This document shows, piece by piece, positions 2,619 through 41,381 of a DNA stretch of 50,633 nt (its first letter is position 1; each line of letters begins with the position of its first letter). The notes beneath the pieces are model-generated. The model saw only the letters and a list, made by a program, of their open reading frames with translations, had not been told where the DNA came from and searched no databases. The translations under genes and the position numbers were made by a program. The DNA comes from a phage. The stretch lies in the sequence record NC_102605.1; one strand, given 5' to 3'.

Positions 2619-2803
2619 TGAAACTGTTGCGCCGCTTTACTAATAAAGGCAAGTGCCGCCGACTCATTGAGAGAATAGAAAACGAAAAAGAGTATTTGCT
2701 ATATGCAATGCTTCATTGTAAAGATCAAAAACTGTCAAAAGATAGACAATGGTTTAAACGCTGGCAAAAAATGAGATATTGGCTTGATCAACTCACTAAA
2801 TAG
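2618..2803 (+). CDS. Hypothetical basic protein (61 aa)
   Basis: ORF track; stop TAG lies inside the next dyad motif. Confidence 0.5.
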   Translation: MKLLRRFTNKGKCRRLIERIENEKEYLLYAMLHCKDQKLSKDRQWFKRWQKMRYWLDQLTK

Positions 2804-2818
2804 CACTTTTTGTTAAAA
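2798..2818 (+). promoter_or_regulatory. Dyad-motif cassette
   Basis: aaatagcactttttgttaaaa, then cataat and leader cattcatcgaaacgaa. Confidence 0.6.
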
Positions 2819-2875
2819 GCGATCCGGTTTGTTTTGGCATAATGCATTCATCGAAACGAACCGGAGAATTTAAAA

Positions 2876-3157
2876 ATGATGGTATCAAAAACAACTACTA
2901 ATTTCGCTGGCAAACGTGGCATTGAGTTAAGCATTGAAACGGGTTACAACAAGTTTGAAGAATTTGAAACGCTGTGCATTTGGGAAGCGGATAATGATTG
3001 CGAATGGCTTTGTTCTTACCGCGTAAATGGTGATGGATCATTCACATGGAATGCAAACATTTATCTGAAAAAAGAAGTTATGGAAGAATTGCCAGCATTC
3101 ATTAAAGATGAAAAACATCTTCGCCAGGTTATCCAGTTTATCAGTGAGAACATTTAA
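2876..3157 (+). CDS. Hypothetical protein (93 aa)
   Basis: ORF track; CGGAGAA RBS. Confidence 0.55.
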   Translation: MMVSKTTTNFAGKRGIELSIETGYNKFEEFETLCIWEADNDCEWLCSYRVNGDGSFTWNANIYLKKEVMEELPAFIKDEKHLRQVIQFISENI

Positions 3158-3390
3158 TGAAACGTAAGCGGCATCAAGCAACGTGCCGCTGCCAGGCTTA
3201 CGATTTTCCTCATAGGTTTGGTGGCGGTTTGTGTACCGGAATTCAGATCGCTGAGGAAAACGTAGGCGGCAACCTTTGCCAGAACTGCTATCTGTTTAAT
3301 GGTGGCTGTGAAGTGTTAAAAGGCCAGGAGTCTCCGCGAGAATGCGCATATGTGCAAGAATTTATAGAATATCATGAGGTTAAATTATGA
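3157..3390 (+). CDS. Cys-rich small protein (77 aa), possible zinc-binding
   Basis: ORF track; 8 Cys in C-x2-C-like spacing. Confidence 0.5.
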   Translation: MKRKRHQATCRCQAYDFPHRFGGGLCTGIQIAEENVGGNLCQNCYLFNGGCEVLKGQESPRECAYVQEFIEYHEVKL

Positions 3391-3584
3391 TCCGTTATGC
3401 GTGTTATTTGGTTAGCAGAATTGACGCGAATGATAAAACACTTATTGCAACTGCTAATAATTTAGCAAATGCGTTGCAAGCGTTTGAAGATTACAACAGC
3501 GATCATATTAATAAAAAATATGGCAAAACAATTGAGCGCCAGCGTTGCGAGTGGGTAACAGAAGATAGGATCACGTATCTATGA
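3387..3584 (+). CDS. Hypothetical protein (65 aa)
   Basis: ORF track; ATGA overlap. Confidence 0.5.
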   Translation: MIRYACYLVSRIDANDKTLIATANNLANALQAFEDYNSDHINKKYGKTIERQRCEWVTEDRITYL

Positions 3585-3748
3585 CATATTTCAAAAACAT
3601 AAAAACCGGAAGAATTTACCGCGTAAACCTGCGTCATAAAAACGCTTTAATTATGAGCAAAGGCGGCTGTTGGGTTAGGTCTGCGCGTTATAGAAATGCA
3701 GATTTAACAGGCTATCCGTTTATCGCCGTAAACAGCACGAATTGCTAA
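3581..3748 (+). CDS. Hypothetical small basic protein (~55 aa), not in ORF track
   Basis: ATGA overlap with the upstream gene; open frame ending inside the next motif. Confidence 0.35.
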   Translation: MTYFKNIKTGRIYRVNLRHKNALIMSKGGCWVRSARYRNADLTGYPFIAVNSTNC

Positions 3749-3750
3749 AA
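3732..3750 (+). promoter_or_regulatory. Dyad-motif cassette (palindromic variant agcacgaattgctaaaa)
   Basis: TAGCA-N5-TGCTA-type dyad, followed by tatcat. Confidence 0.5.
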
Positions 3751-3807
3751 ACGATATCGCTCTGATTGGTATCATACTTTCACACAAACAAAATGGAGAA
3801 TCAAAAA

Positions 3808-4029
3808 ATGAAACTGAAAACTGAATCCATCATGAACATTGTCAAAGCTCACGGGAAAGTAGTTTTGAAAATGGATCGCGCTTCTGGATTCCATCAGTTA
3901 ACGATTACCCGCGTAAAAACTGGTTACGCTGTTGGCGAACATCCAGGCGGTAGAATCCGCCGAATAACTGAAAGTGATGCTTACGCGATGATTGACGAAA
4001 TGAGCATGTTTATTGAGAAGTGGGGTTGA
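3808..4029 (+). CDS. Hypothetical protein (73 aa)
   Basis: ORF track 3766..4029; ATG after GGAGAA RBS. Confidence 0.5.
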   Translation: MKLKTESIMNIVKAHGKVVLKMDRASGFHQLTITRVKTGYAVGEHPGGRIRRITESDAYAMIDEMSMFIEKWG

Positions 4030-4030
4030 T

Positions 4031-4255
4031 ATGGTTCAAGATGCTTTCTTTGCTCGCCTACATGAAGCGGAGGCGGCTGGACTTAACAAAGAATGGGCGC
4101 TTAAAGTTGCCTATCTTGAAATAACGCTTGATGACGCATTAGGCGCTATGGATATGGATCAAGAAAGTAGCGTGATGCTTGCTGATCCTAACGCAATAAT
4201 CAATGATTGCGGTTGTAACTTCGATCCATCTTGCAAGCGTTGTTTCCCATTCTAA
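4031..4255 (+). CDS. Hypothetical protein with Cys-rich C-terminus (74 aa)
   Basis: ORF track 4013..4255; internal ATG after GTGGGG. Confidence 0.45.
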   Translation: MVQDAFFARLHEAEAAGLNKEWALKVAYLEITLDDALGAMDMDQESSVMLADPNAIINDCGCNFDPSCKRCFPF

Positions 4256-4267
4256 GGAGTATTTAAA

Positions 4268-4345
4268 ATGACACCTATCGAAAAAATTTGCTGCCCAAAA
4301 CACGGCGGAAGCGGGGATAAAACAACATGCCCATTCTGTAAGTAA
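4268..4345 (+). CDS. Cys-rich micropeptide (25 aa, CC-x7-C-x2-C), not in ORF track
   Basis: Perfect TAAGGAG RBS 8 nt upstream of ATG. Confidence 0.3.
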   Translation: MTPIEKICCPKHGGSGDKTTCPFCK

Positions 4346-4454
4346 AAAAATAGCGGCCTGTTTAGCGTCGTGTCGCGATTTCAGGCCGTAGCCAATACAG
4401 TTGCGACACCTACAAACAAAACGCCTTACAAGGTCATACAGAAAGGATTTAAAC

Positions 4455-5150
4455 ATGCTTATTTTCTCACTATTTGATGGTTCTGGTTATGCTGCGTTGC
4501 CGTGGGCTGAACGTGGTCACAAAGTGCTGTGCTTTAATTTCGACGGTGCTGATCATGGTGATTACCAATCAGTGCGCGTGACTCATCCCAACATCGTTTA
4601 TTTGAATGAGTGGATCGGATTATCATTCCAGCATAACGCAATGATGCGCGTCTTTGGCACTCCAGATTTTATTATTGCATTCCCTCCATGCACTGATTTA
4701 GCTGTTAGCGGATCGCGTCACTTTGCCGCAAAGCGTGAACGTGATCCAGACTTCCAGAAAAAGGCGGTTGAAACGGCAAAGATTGCTGCCAATATTGCGG
4801 ATCGGTTTAACGTTCCATACATGATTGAGAATCCTGTTAGTGTTCTGTCGTCAATGTGGCGGCAACCTGATTTTATCTTTCATCCTTGCGCGTTTGGAGG
4901 TCTGTTGCCGGAAGATGATAAACATCCTCACTTTCCTGAAATCATTCCCGCTCGCGATGCGTACACCAAAAAAACTTGTCTTTGGACGGGTAACGGCTTT
5001 GTAATGCCGGATACAAACGCAGTATTGCCAACAGGGAACAACAATCCAGGCTGGCAAAAGCTCGGCGGCAAGTCTAAGCGAACAAAGCTGATCCGCTCAC
5101 TCACTCCGCGCGGCTTTGCGCTTGCTGTATGCATGGCAAATCAGAAATAG
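4455..5150 (+). CDS. DNA cytosine-5 methyltransferase-like protein, short, no obvious target-recognition domain (231 aa)
   Basis: Motif I-like FDGSG, PC motif FPPCTDLAVSG and ENV-like IENPV in canonical order; ATG after AAAGGA. Confidence 0.4.
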   Translation: MLIFSLFDGSGYAALPWAERGHKVLCFNFDGADHGDYQSVRVTHPNIVYLNEWIGLSFQHNAMMRVFGTPDFIIAFPPCTDLAVSGSRHFAAKRERDPDFQKKAVETAKIAANIADRFNVPYMIENPVSVLSSMWRQPDFIFHPCAFGGLLPEDDKHPHFPEIIPARDAYTKKTCLWTGNGFVMPDTNAVLPTGNNNPGWQKLGGKSKRTKLIRSLTPRGFALAVCMANQK

Positions 5151-8900: not shown

Positions 8901-9116
8901 CTATTTTTGGTTAATTTTAAGAGCGGTTTTAAGATCTCCACACTCTAACGCCTCTCGGATCGCCTTGCTGTCACGCCACCTTAGCCACAAGCCAACAGCG
9001 CCGAAAATAACAAAGAATATGAATGTTAGAACCGCCAACATTAATTGACCAGTTGCAGCGCCAGAGAATGAAGCACCACCACTTGAATAAGTTGCAAAGT
9101 TAATAAATTCACGCAT
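8901..9116 (-). CDS. Holin (probable pinholin, 71 aa)
   Basis: Small protein with hydrophobic TMDs and charged C-terminus, directly upstream of the SAR endolysin. Confidence 0.6.
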   Translation of the reverse strand: MREFINFATYSSGGASFSGAATGQLMLAVLTFIFFVIFGAVGLWLRWRDSKAIREALECGDLKTALKINQK

Positions 9117-9228
9117 AACTAGATCCCTTAAAAATTAAAAAGTCAATATCAAAAAACAGTCTGATTATGTTAACGACAAAAACAAAAAAAGGCCAGCATT
9201 TAGCCAGCCTTTTTATGTGATAATTTAA

Positions 9229-10344
9229 TTATGCAATCATTTCAGGGTAGAACATGAAGCGCCCTATCTCGCCATATTCCTTATCATAGATAATTACCGC
9301 CGCTCTACGGCGTGAACGCCAACCGCCACGCGCCGCATAAGCATCTTTAGCCGCCATAGTGCTATGAACCTCAACAATGCCCAGGCTCGTTTCTGTGACT
9401 GTCTGATGATGCCAATGCCCCACATGCGCATACATTGAATTGGAGTTTCCGAAATCTTCCCGCCAATCCGCTGCACACATCATTAAAAGCGTTTCTGGCT
9501 TGCGTACAGTGTGACCATGATGATAAGCAAGGAACGTTTTTCCATATTGCGTGTGATGCACTACACGCGGAGAAACATCAACATTAACGCGTGGTTCATC
9601 TTCATACGCCGCCGCCATTGCAGCACGTAGCCAGATCATTCCTGATTGGTCGTGATTACCCTCAATGATCTGGATCTCAACTTCTTTATGCTTTTCAAGC
9701 ATACGGCTTACTGCTCTACGCGTGGCACGAATGGCAACATAAACCAGTTTTGCATAACGTGAATCCTGATCCAATACGTGACCGCTTGCAGGTGTGACGG
9801 CTTCTAATCCGTCGCTGTGAATCATATCACCACCAATCAGCAATACGGCCTTTTCGCTATTCGGCGCTTTATCAACTGCATAATCGAAAAACTCATTCAT
9901 TACGTTTTCCGCTGTTGCCGTGTCGTAATTCTCACCGCTTTCATGCTTATGAGCCATTGCGCCAATATGGATATCAAAGATCGGATATAACGCCAGCGTT
10001 TGCGAGTAATCAGTAATTTTTTCCGGTTGCGGCTTGATGCGCGGCACTTCTTCCGAAAATGCAGCCATAGCCGCTTGCATGATTGCCTCTAATTGCTCTT
10101 TGTCTTTGTGCGTCTTAATCCAGGTTAGTTTAGTGTTACCATTCTTATCAACTAACTTTGACTCGCCAATTACAGCAAAGCCAGGCGATCCGATTGTTGA
10201 TATTTCCCCACGTTTAGCCAATTTGCTGTGACGGTGCTCAACCTGTCGCAAGCTCATTCCGTACTTTTCCGCAATCTCACGCAGTTTTAAACCTGCTGCC
10301 CTTTCTGCAATAAGTTGTTCGTCCGTAATTTTTGCCGCACTCAT
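9229..10344 (-). CDS. HTH-domain protein fused to calcineurin-like metallophosphoesterase (371 aa)
   Basis: N-terminal HTH-like region; phosphoesterase motifs DIHIG, GGDMIHSD, GNHD, HHGH, GHWHH. Confidence 0.7.
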   Translation of the reverse strand: MSAAKITDEQLIAERAAGLKLREIAEKYGMSLRQVEHRHSKLAKRGEISTIGSPGFAVIGESKLVDKNGNTKLTWIKTHKDKEQLEAIMQAAMAAFSEEVPRIKPQPEKITDYSQTLALYPIFDIHIGAMAHKHESGENYDTATAENVMNEFFDYAVDKAPNSEKAVLLIGGDMIHSDGLEAVTPASGHVLDQDSRYAKLVYVAIRATRRAVSRMLEKHKEVEIQIIEGNHDQSGMIWLRAAMAAAYEDEPRVNVDVSPRVVHHTQYGKTFLAYHHGHTVRKPETLLMMCAADWREDFGNSNSMYAHVGHWHHQTVTETSLGIVEVHSTMAAKDAYAARGGWRSRRRAAVIIYDKEYGEIGRFMFYPEMIA

Positions 10345-10437
10345 TTCACAAATCCTCTTATTTCATAACAATGGCGTACATCATAAACCATGCCAGCATT
10401 GGCGGCAAGACAACAGCAAACATGAATTTAATTGTTT

Positions 10438-10680
10438 TCACTTGTAATATTTCCTTTGCTCTTTGGTTTTGTTGATCACTTCTTTATAGTCGATTGTTGT
10501 CGGAATTGCCGGAACACGATGAACCTTGCGCGGCTTTTCATCCACATATGCCATTTCATCACCGACAATAACGCACACGTCTTTAATATCGAAATATTGC
10601 GCTATTTTGGCGATCCCTTCATCAAGACCGCCTTTTTTCGCTAACTCCCAGGTTTCCTTTTTACCCTTCGTTACTTTCAT
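10438..10680 (-). CDS. Hypothetical protein (~80 aa)
   Basis: ORF track 10438..10758; internal ATG overlapping the stop of the upstream small ORF. Confidence 0.4.
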   Translation of the reverse strand: MKVTKGKKETWELAKKGGLDEGIAKIAQYFDIKDVCVIVGDEMAYVDEKPRKVHRVPAIPTTIDYKEVINKTKEQRKYYK

Positions 10681-10825
10681 GACCGTAAGCCTTTTTAAGT
10701 AATTCCATAGCATCATTCCAAAGAATTTGCGCAATAACTTTTGTGTTTTTACGCTCAAGCATAAACAAAGATTCTCTTGCTAACCATTGAGCATCTTTGA
10801 AATATTCAACATTAACAATTTTCAT
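10661..10825 (-). CDS. Hypothetical small protein (~54 aa), not in ORF track
   Basis: ATG after GAGGA RBS and conserved leader tcaacgaaacgaaacgagga, downstream of a cassette. Confidence 0.4.
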   Translation of the reverse strand: MKIVNVEYFKDAQWLARESLFMLERKNTKVIAQILWNDAMELLKKAYGHESNEG

Positions 10826-10883
10826 TTTACAAATCCTCGTTTCGTTTCGTTGAAATGATTATGCCCCACATAAGCGGGGCCTT

Positions 10884-11166: not shown

Positions 11167-11904
11167 TTAAATACTCCGCGCTTTTGTGCGTTTGTTCTTA
11201 ACAGAAGGGCAAATTTCACTAATTGGCACATAATGAGTTTGTTGTTGCTCACCTTCTTTCAGTTGGCGCATGATAAAAATCACGCTTCCTTTATTGTTTC
11301 CACTAACTTGCTCACCTGTCATGCCAGAAATAAACGACACTCGACCAGTGCGGGAATATTGTTTTCCTTCTTCTTCCCATGTTTCGCCAGTGATCCAGAT
11401 AATTTCCGCCGCGTGTTTTTGTGCATCGCTAAACCATGCGGTTGAGTTGTCAGCCGGAAGTAAAATATCAATCTGGTTTCCGTGTTCCATCTGCTCAATT
11501 GCTTTTAACACAAACGGATCTGGATTGCTGTATGGCGGATTAAGCCAAACATGCTTATTGCTACCCCACCAACGCTTTAAACAGTTTGTTTCTTTGCTGT
11601 AAAACTTATCGCATTTTTTATTATCTTCCGTTGCGGCTGCATCAAGATCATATTTGCCGTAACGTTCGGCAAGATAATCAACAATTTCATCTGGCGTTTC
11701 CCACAAATCGCGCACAACGTCCGGCGTTTTACTTCCTGCATAACGGTTGCCGCTAACCTTCAAAAACGTGTTTTCTCTAACTGGCTGATAATGACCACCT
11801 GAACGCAGCGCAATATCTGAATATCTTCCGTATTGCAGTTCATGAAAATCCATTTCCGGCTCAAAAGTATCAATGGTTGCTTTGTCCTGAAAATCCTTAG
11901 CCAT
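11167..11904 (-). CDS. dam: DNA N6-adenine methyltransferase (phage Dam family)
   Basis: Catalytic NPPY motif (WLNPPYS); size and context typical of phage Dam. Confidence 0.8.
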   Translation of the reverse strand: MAKDFQDKATIDTFEPEMDFHELQYGRYSDIALRSGGHYQPVRENTFLKVSGNRYAGSKTPDVVRDLWETPDEIVDYLAERYGKYDLDAAATEDNKKCDKFYSKETNCLKRWWGSNKHVWLNPPYSNPDPFVLKAIEQMEHGNQIDILLPADNSTAWFSDAQKHAAEIIWITGETWEEEGKQYSRTGRVSFISGMTGEQVSGNNKGSVIFIMRQLKEGEQQQTHYVPISEICPSVKNKRTKARSI

Positions 11905-12240: not shown

Positions 12241-12261
12241 TTTTAACAAAAAGTGCTATTT
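12241..12261 (-). promoter_or_regulatory. Dyad-motif cassette (minus orientation)
   Basis: Reverse complement of the motif; hairpin ggcgca/tgcgcc; cataat; leader catcagaacgaaacggaga. Confidence 0.6.
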
Positions 12262-12663
12262 TGTAGCGTCTGCGATAGCCAATTTTACTTGCTCTACGCC
12301 ATAGCATACGGCGGCAAATCCTCCGCATTCCCTAACGCGGCGTAAGAATTCCTTTTGCTCCTGGCTTACTTTCGTGCCTTTCTTGTTGGCTCGTTTAAGC
12401 TCAATGGAAATGAATGCATATTTGCAGCCAATAAAACCAGTCAGGATTAGAATGTCGCTTACTCCCTTTTTCACACCTGCTTGCTGATCCTTTACTGCTG
12501 TGCCTATTGTTTTCTTCCCTTCGTTTTTAGTGTGCCAAACAAGCCACATTGGAAACTCATATGTTAACCATGAGTAAGAATCAACCTGGTGCGCTTCCTC
12601 TTTTCTGTCATCTGGATCTGATTTGTCGTAATACTCCAGATAATCGCCTTTATCAGTAACCAT
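12256..12663 (-). CDS. VRR-NUC domain nuclease
   Basis: PD-(D/E)XK-type D...ELK core (GVSDILIL...ISIELKR), about 135 aa. Confidence 0.65.
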   Translation of the reverse strand: MVTDKGDYLEYYDKSDPDDRKEEAHQVDSYSWLTYEFPMWLVWHTKNEGKKTIGTAVKDQQAGVKKGVSDILILTGFIGCKYAFISIELKRANKKGTKVSQEQKEFLRRVRECGGFAAVCYGVEQVKLAIADATK

Positions 12664-12665
12664 CT

Positions 12666-14639
12666 TTAAAACTCCTTCTGCGCAATCAAATCTTCTTTCT
12701 TTGTGTTTTTGCGATGGGTAACACGTTTCGGCGGCAATATTTGCCCCGCATAACTCATGATCTTAATTGCATTGCGGCAAGTGATCATGAAGTTTGCAGC
12801 CTGGCGATCTATAACGTGTGTTCTAACCGCCTTTGTCCAAAGCGTTTTGCATATCTTGTGTTCTGATTCAGGGAAATATTTTTCGTATGCCCTGAATTCT
12901 ACGCCGCCACTATCACGCAACGTGTAGCAGAATATTACGCCAGCCTGGTTTTTTGTCAGTGTTACATTAAAATCTAACACGTCACACCAATCATTTTTAC
13001 GGTACATCTTGCCGGATAAGTTATCATTTGGATCTCGCAACTGAACATTACAGCAACGGCATACACGCGCCGCAACGTCATTTTTTGCGCCGCAACCTTT
13101 TACAATAACTTTCTTTGTGCGGTCATCAATCTGATCCTCACATTCCTGGAACGTCCAGAAATGTTCACAACGATTTCCGTTTTCATCCTCATTAATGCAA
13201 CGGCGAGCATAGAATGAATTTTCTGTGCCGCAAATCGGGCAATATTTCGGATCTTTATCCTGTGATTTACGCAACTGGAATTGCGCTTGCTCTAACATCG
13301 GATCGAAATACAAATTACCCATTTCAAACATCGTGCCGGAAAAATCCAAAACAAGGTGATCCGTTTTGTGCATTCCCAATACTTCTTTATGGTAAGTTTT
13401 TAATTGACGCATACCGCGCCCCAAAAGCTGAGTTAATAGCGTCAGGCTTCCGATCTTACGCAAAATAACAGAAGTATCCCACGGCGGAACGTTCACTCCA
13501 GTTGTTAGCGCTTGAACCTGGAATATGTATTTCACGCGCCCTTCATAGGCATCCTCAAGCCATAAGCGCCGCTGTTTCTCTCCAGTTTTTCCGGTGATAA
13601 TGTGATATTTCGTGCCAGGAGGAAGCGCCGCCGCCGCCTCTTTACAATGCCTTTCGTCAGCGCAAGTAACAAGAGCGCACAAGCGGTTTTTCATCACCTC
13701 ATGAACCATCTGCATTATTTTCTGCGTCATGGTTCCTGATTGGTGAATCTTGTCACTCATGGCCTTTAATTGCTTCTGGTCATAATCAGCAACGCCAAAT
13801 TCATGCACTGGCGTAAATTCTGATAAGTCGTAACCCAAATCACCAACATTGCCAAAATAAGTTGGAACAACTGAGCCAAATTTTACCAGGTAATCAGTAT
13901 CAATGTTTGTGATCTGCTCACGCCAAAATCCAGGAATTCTTTTATCTTCGACAAGTATCGGCTCAATCCCGCGATATTCCGATCCGGTCATTCCAAATAT
14001 GCGCAACTGATGCCCGTAAGTCTCAAGGCAACGGCGGCGCATTTCTGCAATGATAATGGTGTATTGTGCGCGGCCTGAACCAATCAGCAACGGATGCCCT
14101 TCAACTGGTTCACCTTTCGGTGTCATCATTTGCTCTATGCTTTCGCCGTTTTCCTCGGCTTCAACAATATCATTCCAGTTGACTTGATGACATTCGTCTA
14201 TACCTAAAACTTGTGGGACGTAATCACCCAACGCTTTATTCAATCCACCAATTACAGTGCCTTCCGATCCGACAACAATCGGGAAATAAGCGCTTTTGGT
14301 ATTCAGGCCAGCGCAATAAACGGAATTCGGAACACCAAAGGCGCTAATCTCTTTTGAATCCTGATCCACAATTTCAGATTGACGCGCCAGAAATAACGCT
14401 TTCAACCCCATTTTACGGCACTGAGCCGCAACCATAGCAAAGATGATTGTTTTACCTGCCGATACCGCCGCTTTAACGAAAAACGGATCAACATACTTGC
14501 TCAAGCGCTTTGCAATTTCAGCGTAAGCAACGCATTGGTATTCATACGGGACAATCTCACCAACCGTGAAACGCTTCTGTATTGCTCTGATCTTTTCCTC
14601 TCCAAGATCTGCAATCTGCTTTTCAATGTTAGGAATCAT
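12666..14639 (-). CDS. DExH-box superfamily-2 DNA helicase with C-terminal Cys-rich zinc-finger region
   Basis: Walker A VSAGKT, DECH box (GIDECHQV), helicase C motifs, C-terminal CxxC clusters. Confidence 0.75.
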   Translation of the reverse strand: MIPNIEKQIADLGEEKIRAIQKRFTVGEIVPYEYQCVAYAEIAKRLSKYVDPFFVKAAVSAGKTIIFAMVAAQCRKMGLKALFLARQSEIVDQDSKEISAFGVPNSVYCAGLNTKSAYFPIVVGSEGTVIGGLNKALGDYVPQVLGIDECHQVNWNDIVEAEENGESIEQMMTPKGEPVEGHPLLIGSGRAQYTIIIAEMRRRCLETYGHQLRIFGMTGSEYRGIEPILVEDKRIPGFWREQITNIDTDYLVKFGSVVPTYFGNVGDLGYDLSEFTPVHEFGVADYDQKQLKAMSDKIHQSGTMTQKIMQMVHEVMKNRLCALVTCADERHCKEAAAALPPGTKYHIITGKTGEKQRRLWLEDAYEGRVKYIFQVQALTTGVNVPPWDTSVILRKIGSLTLLTQLLGRGMRQLKTYHKEVLGMHKTDHLVLDFSGTMFEMGNLYFDPMLEQAQFQLRKSQDKDPKYCPICGTENSFYARRCINEDENGNRCEHFWTFQECEDQIDDRTKKVIVKGCGAKNDVAARVCRCCNVQLRDPNDNLSGKMYRKNDWCDVLDFNVTLTKNQAGVIFCYTLRDSGGVEFRAYEKYFPESEHKICKTLWTKAVRTHVIDRQAANFMITCRNAIKIMSYAGQILPPKRVTHRKNTKKEDLIAQKEF

Positions 14640-39800: not shown

Positions 39801-41381
39801 TTAACGCTTCGCTAATCCAGCTAAACGCTTCATTCTATCAACAGCATTATCAGCAAGGTTAAGCTCAATATTAACCGCATCAAAAAGGTTATCCATAATA
39901 TCATCATGAGGATGGCTATCATCATAAGTGAATGCAGCCGCCTCTGCCAGAAATTCAGCAAGCATGTGATGCGATTCAGGCAATACAACATAACCATTCT
40001 TGATCACTGGTTGTGCGTCCATGCATCGCGTTACTTTGTCTTTATCGCGTTGCACTGGCGTAATTTCTATCGGAAATGCTTTGCGGCAATTCTGGATCAA
40101 ACCTGTGCCGCTCGCTTTATCTTCCACGTAAATTTTACGCAAGTTTCCGCATTCTTTGTTACGTTTCCAGCACTGTTTAACAAACGCTTTAAACTGCGTT
40201 TCTAACATTGGCGCTTCCCATTTGCCGCGCACACCGTCAATAAAATAGATGCGGCCTTTGAACATGCCCCAATAACATAAAACGCTGTAGTCGTTTAGCT
40301 CACCTTCTTTCTGAGCGGTATCAGCCGTAATAAACGTATAATCAAAGCGATCCGGTTTTGGCATCGTTGATTTTTCTCCTGTTCCGTAATACTGGAACCA
40401 TCCAACGTTAATTGCGTTGCCGCCAAGAGCAATTGGCTCTTGCTGGTACTGAGAAAGGAACGTGTATAAATCCGCATCGCGTAGCGCTTTCAGGTCATGA
40501 ATGCTTTCCTTGCTAGGCCAAAAAGAATAATACTTAACGCCATCAATAACGATGTATTCAGACGAAAGAACATCCTTTTCAAAGTGCGGTTGCAACCAAT
40601 CAGGAAGCGATTTCCCGTATTCCTCCGTAACCATCGCCGGAATTGATATCTGATCAAATTCAATACCCATTCCGCCATTCATCAGAAACCAGGTCATATC
40701 CTGCGCGTGTAGACGCTGCTGAATAACGATAATCGGCGTTTCTGAATGTGCGCGACGTGATCGAATGGTGTTCTTTGCGATCATTTGACCGCGCTCACGC
40801 TTCACCTTCGAAAACATATCATCTGGCTTTTCTGGATCGTCAAGCGTTACGCAACCGGAATAAACACCAGGCGTGATGTAACCGCCACGGCTACCAGTAA
40901 TCTGACCGCCCATTGATTTACTAATCATTTCCAGGCGAACTTTGCCAGCGTCATTAAGGATCTGAAATTCATCATCCTTGCTTGTACCAGTTTTTGCGGG
41001 GTAAAGCTCTTGCCATTCTCGCGAGTTAACCAGATCGCGCACACGCTTGCTGTTACGTTTAACCAGCGTATCAGCAAACGAAATATTAAGATTTCGCACC
41101 TTGTTCAATTTCAAATATGAATAAGGCGGAAAGTGGATCGAAAGCAATTCTGTTTTACCTGAACCTGGCGTTACGTTAAAAATGGTATCTTTGCGCACAC
41201 CTTCAATAATTTCATCAATTGCCCTTGCAATATAAAGGTGATGCCAGTTAGGAATCCATTTTTCGCCCTGCTGGATCGGAAACCAGATTTTAACGAAAGT
41301 ATCAAAATCGTGTGTACTTAATTCCTTAATAGCCAGCTTTTCAAGTTTTGTTAAATCTTCCCAAATCAACATAGCATTCAC
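39801..41381 (-). CDS. terL: Terminase large subunit
   Basis: Walker A TPGSGKT, ATPase plus RNaseH-like nuclease architecture, 526 aa. Confidence 0.85.
   Translation of the reverse strand: MNAMLIWEDLTKLEKLAIKELSTHDFDTFVKIWFPIQQGEKWIPNWHHLYIARAIDEIIEGVRKDTIFNVTPGSGKTELLSIHFPPYSYLKLNKVRNLNISFADTLVKRNSKRVRDLVNSREWQELYPAKTGTSKDDEFQILNDAGKVRLEMISKSMGGQITGSRGGYITPGVYSGCVTLDDPEKPDDMFSKVKRERGQMIAKNTIRSRRAHSETPIIVIQQRLHAQDMTWFLMNGGMGIEFDQISIPAMVTEEYGKSLPDWLQPHFEKDVLSSEYIVIDGVKYYSFWPSKESIHDLKALRDADLYTFLSQYQQEPIALGGNAINVGWFQYYGTGEKSTMPKPDRFDYTFITADTAQKEGELNDYSVLCYWGMFKGRIYFIDGVRGKWEAPMLETQFKAFVKQCWKRNKECGNLRKIYVEDKASGTGLIQNCRKAFPIEITPVQRDKDKVTRCMDAQPVIKNGYVVLPESHHMLAEFLAEAAAFTYDDSHPHDDIMDNLFDAVNIELNLADNAVDRMKRLAGLAKR

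Follow-up and report, generated by a model that had tools for sequence, protein, structure and literature searches.

The subject of this analysis is one gene in a stretch of phage DNA of 50,633 nucleotides (sequence record NC_102605.1; 'the window' below is this whole stretch), which is essentially the Salmonella phage GJL01 genome (KY657202; Drexlerviridae, Tempevirinae, Tlsvirus). The gene encodes a protein in which an N-terminal helix-turn-helix (HTH) is joined to a calcineurin-like metallophosphoesterase (MPE) core, and we refer to it as HTH-MPE. Its product is 100% identical to GJL01_72 (gp72), annotated as 'putative phosphoesterase'. An earlier interpretation made from the letters alone (the sequence-only reading) had flagged this open reading frame (ORF) with its five metal-binding motifs and its HTH, all of which were found again; what it concluded from them about the enzyme and its setting is supported in part. 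The features of the locus are collected in Table 1.

Table 1. Features of the HTH-MPE locus (positions in the window; aa, amino acids)
Feature	Position	Strand	Remarks
HTH-MPE coding sequence	9229..10344	minus	371 aa + stop, ATG start, ORF translation
Ribosome-binding site AAGAGGA of HTH-MPE	10353..10359	minus	8 nt ahead of ATG
Helix-turn-helix, aa 8-44	10213..10323	minus	helix 2 LREIAEKY, turn GMS, recognition helix LRQVEHRHSKLAK
Linker module, aa 58-99	10048..10173	minus	beta-hairpin then helix; from model and family alignment
Calcineurin-like binuclear metallophosphoesterase core, aa 114-364	9253..10005	minus	
Motif I DIHIG, aa 124-128	9961..9975	minus	D124 and H126, metal ligands
Motif II GDMIHSD, aa 172-178	9811..9831	minus	D173, bridging ligand; H176
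Motif III GNHD, aa 229-232	9649..9660	minus	N230, metal ligand; H231, putative general acid
Motif IV HHGH, aa 275-278	9511..9522	minus	H276, invariant
Motif V GHWHH, aa 309-313	9406..9420	minus	H310 and H312, metal ligands
Family-specific loop, aa 177-197	9754..9816	minus	V-T-P-x-S-G-H-x-L-D-x-D-x-R-Y, nearly invariant; pLDDT <50
Second conserved low-confidence loop, aa 331-346	9307..9354	minus	K-D-A-Y-A-x-x-G-G-x-R-S; from alignment and model
Rho-independent terminator, 12-bp stem	9186..9214	minus	between HTH-MPE and holin; ends early operon
Conserved unannotated micro-ORF, about 21-27 aa	10358..10441	minus	one hydrophobic helix; ends 13 nt ahead of HTH-MPE start

In an AlphaFold2 model of the full protein (mean predicted local distance difference test score, pLDDT, 72), residues 8-44 form a three-helix bundle, residues 60-77 a beta-hairpin and residues 82-99 a helix, while residues 114-364 make up an alpha/beta sandwich, the fold expected of the binuclear MPE superfamily. 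Residues 1-110 modelled by themselves (pLDDT 75) gave identical N-terminal elements. The sandwich carries the five motifs DIHIG, GDMIHSD, GNHD, HHGH and GHWHH exactly where the sequence-only reading had placed them. Conservation was scored in alignments of 122-142 cluster representatives with 30-57% identity to the query: D124, H126, D173, N230, H231, H276 and H312 are invariant, and H176 and H310 are conserved in at least 90% of the representatives. All seven metal ligands expected of the superfamily (D124, H126, D173, N230, H276, H310 and H312) are thus present, and the motifs are not chance matches. Two further segments that are family-specific and nearly invariant but have low model confidence, the loops at residues 177-197 and 331-346, are likely to be flexible substrate-binding elements, and the first of them may serve as a lid.

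The N-terminal 60 or so residues, which had been read as an HTH, do have this character: residues 8-44 adopt a three-helix HTH of the LuxR/GerE or sigma-70 region 4 kind in the model, and relatives match HTH profiles. In the profile search that had been proposed as a check, the Pfam HTH matches of the query itself stayed below threshold, but relatives match Sigma70_r4_2 (1.5e-9), GerE (2.4e-8), HTH_8 (2.6e-7), HTH_1 and HTH_23, and the best PDB match of the family profile is GerE. One common N-terminal HTH profile (consensus ...ERQREILEAVEEHGSQRKAAKALGISRSTVRRRLKRVRKRAA...) is matched by 134 of the 142 full-length representatives, about 94%, a lenient count because the profile was made from those very sequences. 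On these matches the HTH is ancestral to the family. The linker that follows is also family-wide, its hairpin having the consensus P-D-G-F-x-V-K-G-x-S-T-L-x-D-x-x-G-x-x-x-x-Q-W-V-K-T with G69 and W75 nearly invariant. A search in and near the gene for a palindromic target, a candidate operator or an iteron- or origin-like repeat found none.

The class of the catalytic core can be narrowed down with several comparisons. With PF00149 (Metallophos), the other profile suggested for a domain search, the query scores 15.0 bits against a gathering cutoff of 21.5, although 27 of 122 relatives match at E <0.01; falling below the Pfam threshold, the query therefore belongs to a divergent MPE clade. The fold neighbours of the core are MJ0936, SbcD, PolD-DP1 and Mre11, and the best PPP-type phosphatase in the same comparison, PP5, scores just 7.9. 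The PPP signatures GDxHG, GDxVDRG and GNHE, as found in lambda NinI, are absent, so that the description of the protein as a Ser/Thr-phosphatase-type enzyme did not hold up. Among the 122 relatives, the sole NCBIfam MPE model matched is that of PdeM (23 relatives, best E 1.6e-5, far below its cutoff); the query itself reaches 19.1 bits with this model, TIGR04123, against a cutoff of 150. When a profile of the MPE part alone was compared with the PDB, only Thermotoga maritima SbcD/Mre11 (E 0.05) and Pyrococcus furiosus Mre11 (E 2.8) were matched, in an alignment that spans D-x-H-L-G and G-D-L-L-H.

The resemblance to PdeM extends to residues that distinguish nuclease activity. In the Pseudomonas putida enzyme, His81 (three residues past the bridging Asp78) and His113 (in GNH) are both needed for DNA cleavage, and neither is needed for hydrolysis of bis(p-nitrophenyl) phosphate (PMC7826289). 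H176 of HTH-MPE (in GDMIH) is the equivalent of PdeM His81 and of the histidine in Mre11 GDLxH, and H231 (in GNHD) that of PdeM His113, so both nuclease-specific histidines, GD-x-x-H and GN-H, are present. The sequence-only reading had left a choice between a targeted nuclease or phosphodiesterase and a regulatory phosphatase, as opposed to a plain NinI-type enzyme. Its rejection of NinI and its first option agree with a nuclease-like clade; for the regulatory option, no operator or palindrome came to light.

The fusion is the normal architecture of a large family and not peculiar to this phage. The protein matches PHROG 704 ('DNA repair exonuclease', which includes T1 gp16 and TLS gp66) over its full length (E=8e-152, residues 4-370 on profile positions 2-389/390). 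By tblastn, the gene was found in 2036 of 50,697 phage records (about 4%), with 1921 matches covering at least 80% of the query; a HMMER search returned 4635 clusters (50% identity) at E up to 0.001 and 1019 at E up to 1e-30. Relatives are mostly 370-420 aa long, and in all full-length representatives the catalytic core is preceded by 87 residues or more; a homologue in Campylobacter phage F356 lacks the HTH. Genomic copies were collected by matching a degenerate DNA pattern that encodes VTPxSGHxLDxDxR; of the 37 loci obtained, 36 hold true homologues, and all 36 are in prophage-like regions of Proteobacteria. Only four plasmid records were matched, all of phage-like size (44-50 kb). In these searches the family is confined to phages and prophages.

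Gene, family and position beside the lysis cassette are already in public annotation and in recent literature, so that HTH-MPE is of a catalogued kind, albeit an inconsistently annotated one. Records call it 'DNA repair exonuclease', 'proof-reading exonuclease' (the label of TLS gp66; PMC11447400), 'phosphoesterase', 'protein phosphatase' or 'DNA polymerase II small subunit', and others name the HTH ('winged helix-turn-helix domain-containing protein', 'Rrf2 family transcriptional regulator', 'DNA binding protein', 'wHTH protein'). Literature searches covering T1 genetics and functional studies of the family found no experimental report on the function of PHROG 704 or HTH-MPE.

Some individual records deserve comment. 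In a few (Salmonella phage 36, A0A0N6WGC7 and A0A0N7CGC6; phiJLA23) the HTH and the C-terminal part are annotated as separate fragments, a split that probably stems from frameshifts or sequencing errors; one of the fragments bears the wrong label 'host specificity protein'. In Salmonella phage JD02 (locus 2725-4931), HTH-MPE is followed by genes for a hypothetical protein, a Rha-family regulator, two hypothetical proteins and a second Rha-family regulator; the segment looks duplicated, and the tblastn match is therefore in two pieces over 2.3 kb. T1-like genomes of about 50 kb with HTH-MPE at 60-94% identity are also filed under unlikely hosts, namely Campylobacter phage A143 (MG065649), Streptococcus phage MBBL140, Vibrio phage Vc1 and a Paraclostridium bifermentans 'plasmid' (CP124687, 49,647 bp). 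T1-like phages are known to contaminate laboratory cultures, which fits these records.

In GJL01, HTH-MPE is the last gene of a co-directional set made up of a helicase (12666-14639), a VRR-NUC-like nuclease (12256-12663), a small ORF, the Dam methyltransferase (11167-11904), two further small ORFs and the micro-ORF. The order Dam, small ORFs, HTH-MPE and lysis cassette (holin, endolysin, spanin) is kept in Tempevirinae, Tunavirinae, Braunvirinae and Vilniusvirus, and the window shows the same Drexlerviridae synteny. An exonuclease-lysis module has been described in 508 of 522 Drexlerviridae genomes (PMC13164509). The adjacency to the lysis cassette that the sequence-only reading pointed out is thus real and widespread in this family, but a strong terminator sets the gene apart from the holin. 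T1 has a terminator annotated at the matching place, followed by an HNH gene and a small ORF ahead of the holin. A functional link to lysis was rejected on account of the terminator here and in T1, of the HNH, kinase or SH3 genes inserted at this point in other Drexlerviridae, and of the different neighbours found outside Drexlerviridae. From gene order and terminator, HTH-MPE would be transcribed as the final gene of an early helicase/VRR-NUC/Dam operon, apart from the lysis genes.

In six Drexlerviridae that represent four lineages, the end of the micro-ORF is 8-13 nt ahead of the start codon of HTH-MPE (the T1 copy lies at about 40741-40812); the peptides read (V)KTIKFMFAVVLPPMLAWFMMYAIVMK in GJL01, MKLYFAVVLTPLISFSVMYFIIM in T1 and MKLILSVLLPPVIGFVLMYFIVM in HazelMika. 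A hairpin at 10380-10408 was considered as an autoregulatory operator or promoter and rejected because it lies inside this conserved ORF. Two plus-strand stretches of 17 nt, 10341-10357 (TCATTTCACAAATCCTC) and 10822-10838 (TCATTTTACAAATCCTC), are near-identical and comprise the ribosome-binding site and start codon of HTH-MPE and of the small ORF at 10661..10825, respectively, so that a translation-initiation region is common to both.

Free-standing genes for homing-type endonucleases (HNH or T5orf172) repeatedly adjoin HTH-MPE in unrelated phages, as with T1 gp15 and at an E. coli prophage locus (9042-10034), which suggests that homing elements favour the HTH-MPE gene as a target or landmark. 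That HTH-MPE, with its HTH and nuclease parts, is itself a homing endonuclease was rejected: the gene persists in synteny and is not sporadic, and it often has such genes at its flanks instead.

Outside the T1-like phages the neighbours change. E. coli lambdoid prophages (in 35 of 5426 complete genomes) carry the gene between the replication initiator and DnaB, near NinB. The protein encoded there is about 67% identical to that of Drexlerviridae, and the comparison points to an exchange of the gene between virulent T1-like and temperate lambdoid phages. RusA, NinG, YbcO, VRR-NUC and lysis genes are among those upstream of the 36 proteobacterial prophage copies, and TerS, TerL and portal among those downstream. 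A terminase-associated role was rejected, TerL and portal lying 4-11 genes downstream in the prophages and not adjacent, and the T1 terminase 30 kb away. HTH-MPE comes after the Q antiterminator in Xanthomonas phage PBR31 and stands among nucleotide-metabolism genes in an N4-like roseophage, and the F356 homologue adjoins a DNA ligase close to a Holliday-junction resolvase. DNA replication, recombination or repair unites these contexts; lysis does not.

Taken together, these results lead us to regard HTH-MPE, on balance, as probably a DNA-directed, Mn2+- or Mg2+-dependent phosphodiesterase (nuclease) of the binuclear MPE superfamily that acts in phage replication, recombination or repair. We favour this interpretation because of the fold, the profile matches to PdeM and Mre11/SbcD, the conservation of H176 and H231, the replication and repair context, the restriction to phages and the ancestral HTH. 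The protein is built from an N-terminal LuxR- or sigma-region-4-like HTH, the conserved linker of beta-hairpin and helix, and an Mre11/SbcD/PdeM-like catalytic core. The HTH would tether or position the enzyme on DNA, where a metal-bridged water would attack a phosphodiester; H231 would be the general acid and H176 would make contact with the adjacent phosphate, like their counterparts in PdeM and Mre11. The two conserved loops could close over the substrate. The enzyme would work without a Rad50/SbcC partner, and its targets would be phage DNA intermediates such as ends, flaps, hairpins or single-stranded regions that arise during replication, recombination or repair.

A nuclease could instead serve host takeover, degrading or nicking the host chromosome early in infection to bring about host shut-off, supply nucleotides and silence defence genes, as a fused equivalent of the T5 proteins A1 and A2 or of mycobacteriophage Gp48. 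T1 degrades host DNA, and to our knowledge no gene has been molecularly assigned to this activity. T5 A1 acts together with the DNA-binding protein A2 (bioRxiv 10.64898/2026.04.02.716235), and Gp48, an MPE of phage A10ZJ24, reportedly disrupts the genomic DNA of the host and is required to kill Mycobacterium tuberculosis (PMC12287305). There is also a local resemblance around motif III, EGNHDxxSSxWLR against ESNHDLALSRWL in T5 A1. However, this motif-III match of just 20 columns (hhalign probability 19%) is all that aligns with A1 and A2 gave no match, so that homology to either was rejected and A1 stands outside the family. Temperate prophages, moreover, often carry the gene, and there it is part of replication or nin modules, where host-destroying genes are not expected; in its operon it comes last and is not an immediate-early gene; and nothing was found that indicates discrimination between host and phage DNA by HTH-MPE. 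We think host takeover unlikely. A bolder form of the nuclease interpretation, a stand-alone, Rad50-independent, HTH-guided nuclease that in virulent T1-like phages is a host-chromosome-degrading or DNA-end-processing enzyme and the fused counterpart of T5 A1 plus A2, seems to us quite improbable.

Another candidate role is that of a trigger enzyme, regulator or anti-defence phosphodiesterase, with the HTH as an early-to-late transcription factor and the MPE sensing or hydrolysing a small phosphodiester, for example a cyclic (oligo)nucleotide immune signal, cyclic AMP or diadenosine tetraphosphate (Ap4A). Yet the 25 NCBIfam families listed for relatives include PdeM and no cyclic-nucleotide phosphodiesterase, the MPE-only profile finds nothing but Mre11/SbcD in the PDB, and the GDxxH and GNH histidines are those of nucleases. 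What lies upstream is a conserved micro-ORF instead of an operator, no palindromic target was found, and none of the PADLOC models matches HTH-MPE, for which reason membership in a defence or anti-defence family was rejected as well; a role of this kind looks quite unlikely. The labels 'proof-reading exonuclease' and, assigned automatically, 'DNA polymerase II small subunit' imply a replisome accessory, a DP1-like 3'-5' exonuclease working with the host polymerase or the phage helicase, but they reflect fold similarity only. No DP2-like partner is found, the model shows no DP1 OB-fold, a DNA polymerase gene is lacking in T1-like phages according to the T1 annotation, and the host polymerase Pol III has a proofreader of its own. 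Proofreading, which we rate lower again, would in any case be a special case of the favoured nuclease and not a true alternative to it. Finally, a PPP-type protein Ser/Thr(/Tyr) phosphatase like lambda NinI, with an unrelated N-terminal domain, could be argued from the common superfamily, from records that call homologues 'protein phosphatase (phage lambda like)' and from the nin-region-like position in prophages; with the PPP signatures absent and the PP5 fold score as low as it is, we hold it to be very improbable.

For the phage of the window, HTH-MPE is an ordinary core gene of a known and already deposited phage. The family, on the other hand, is very large, core to Drexlerviridae and inconsistently labelled. 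Should its members prove to be HTH-guided MPE nucleases independent of Rad50, the question of annotation would be resolved and the nucleases of the Mre11/PdeM group would gain a further architecture; a component of T1-type replication, of recombination or of the breakdown of host DNA might thereby be recognised as well. The bolder form outlined above, if true, would make them a mechanistically new class of MPE nuclease with members in thousands of phages.

Among known systems, T5 A1 is likewise a phage MPE with the same structural neighbours as HTH-MPE and a DNA-binding partner (A2), and a small membrane-protein gene is adjacent in both cases (T5.005, between A2 and A1, and the micro-ORF here). 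It differs in its length of 556 aa, in its N-terminal half, in being a pre-early gene in the terminal repeat and in that A1 and A2 are separate proteins. Gp48 of A10ZJ24 (cluster A) is another phage MPE, with phosphodiesterase activity and reported DNA damage (PMC12287305). Its description, which gives five MPE motifs and mentions no HTH, sets it apart from HTH-MPE (PMC12287305), as do a host of another phylum and a reported role in counter-defence. Lambda NinI (PP-lambda) is a member of the same superfamily as HTH-MPE and is likewise encoded by an accessory phage gene of the nin-like region in temperate phages, but it belongs to another clade of much lower fold similarity, carries PPP motifs that HTH-MPE lacks and has no HTH. 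PolD DP1 and the eukaryotic polymerase B-subunits have an OB (oligonucleotide/oligosaccharide-binding) domain and a DP2 or polymerase partner, and HTH-MPE has neither. Mre11 and SbcD, with T4 gp47 and T5 D13, carry a C-terminal capping domain; HTH-MPE has none, because only about 58 residues follow motif V and these form core strands in the model. No Rad50/SbcC-like ATPase of the SMC (structural maintenance of chromosomes) type was found among the 14 ORFs of at least 250 aa in the window or in the T1 annotation. Unlike HTH-MPE, Mre11 and SbcD have no N-terminal HTH, and we know of no characterised MPE nuclease that does. PdeM (also named 'MPE', a ligase-associated DNA-damage-response endonuclease that acts on ssDNA; P. 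putida, PDB 6NVO) is a single-domain protein of about 200 aa encoded in an operon with an Lhr-Core helicase, Exo and an ATP-dependent ligase, whereas HTH-MPE has 371 aa with an extra HTH and linker, and the window holds no ligase or Lhr; a neighbouring ligase occurs only with the distant F356 homologue. The GDxxH and GNH histidines are common to both proteins.
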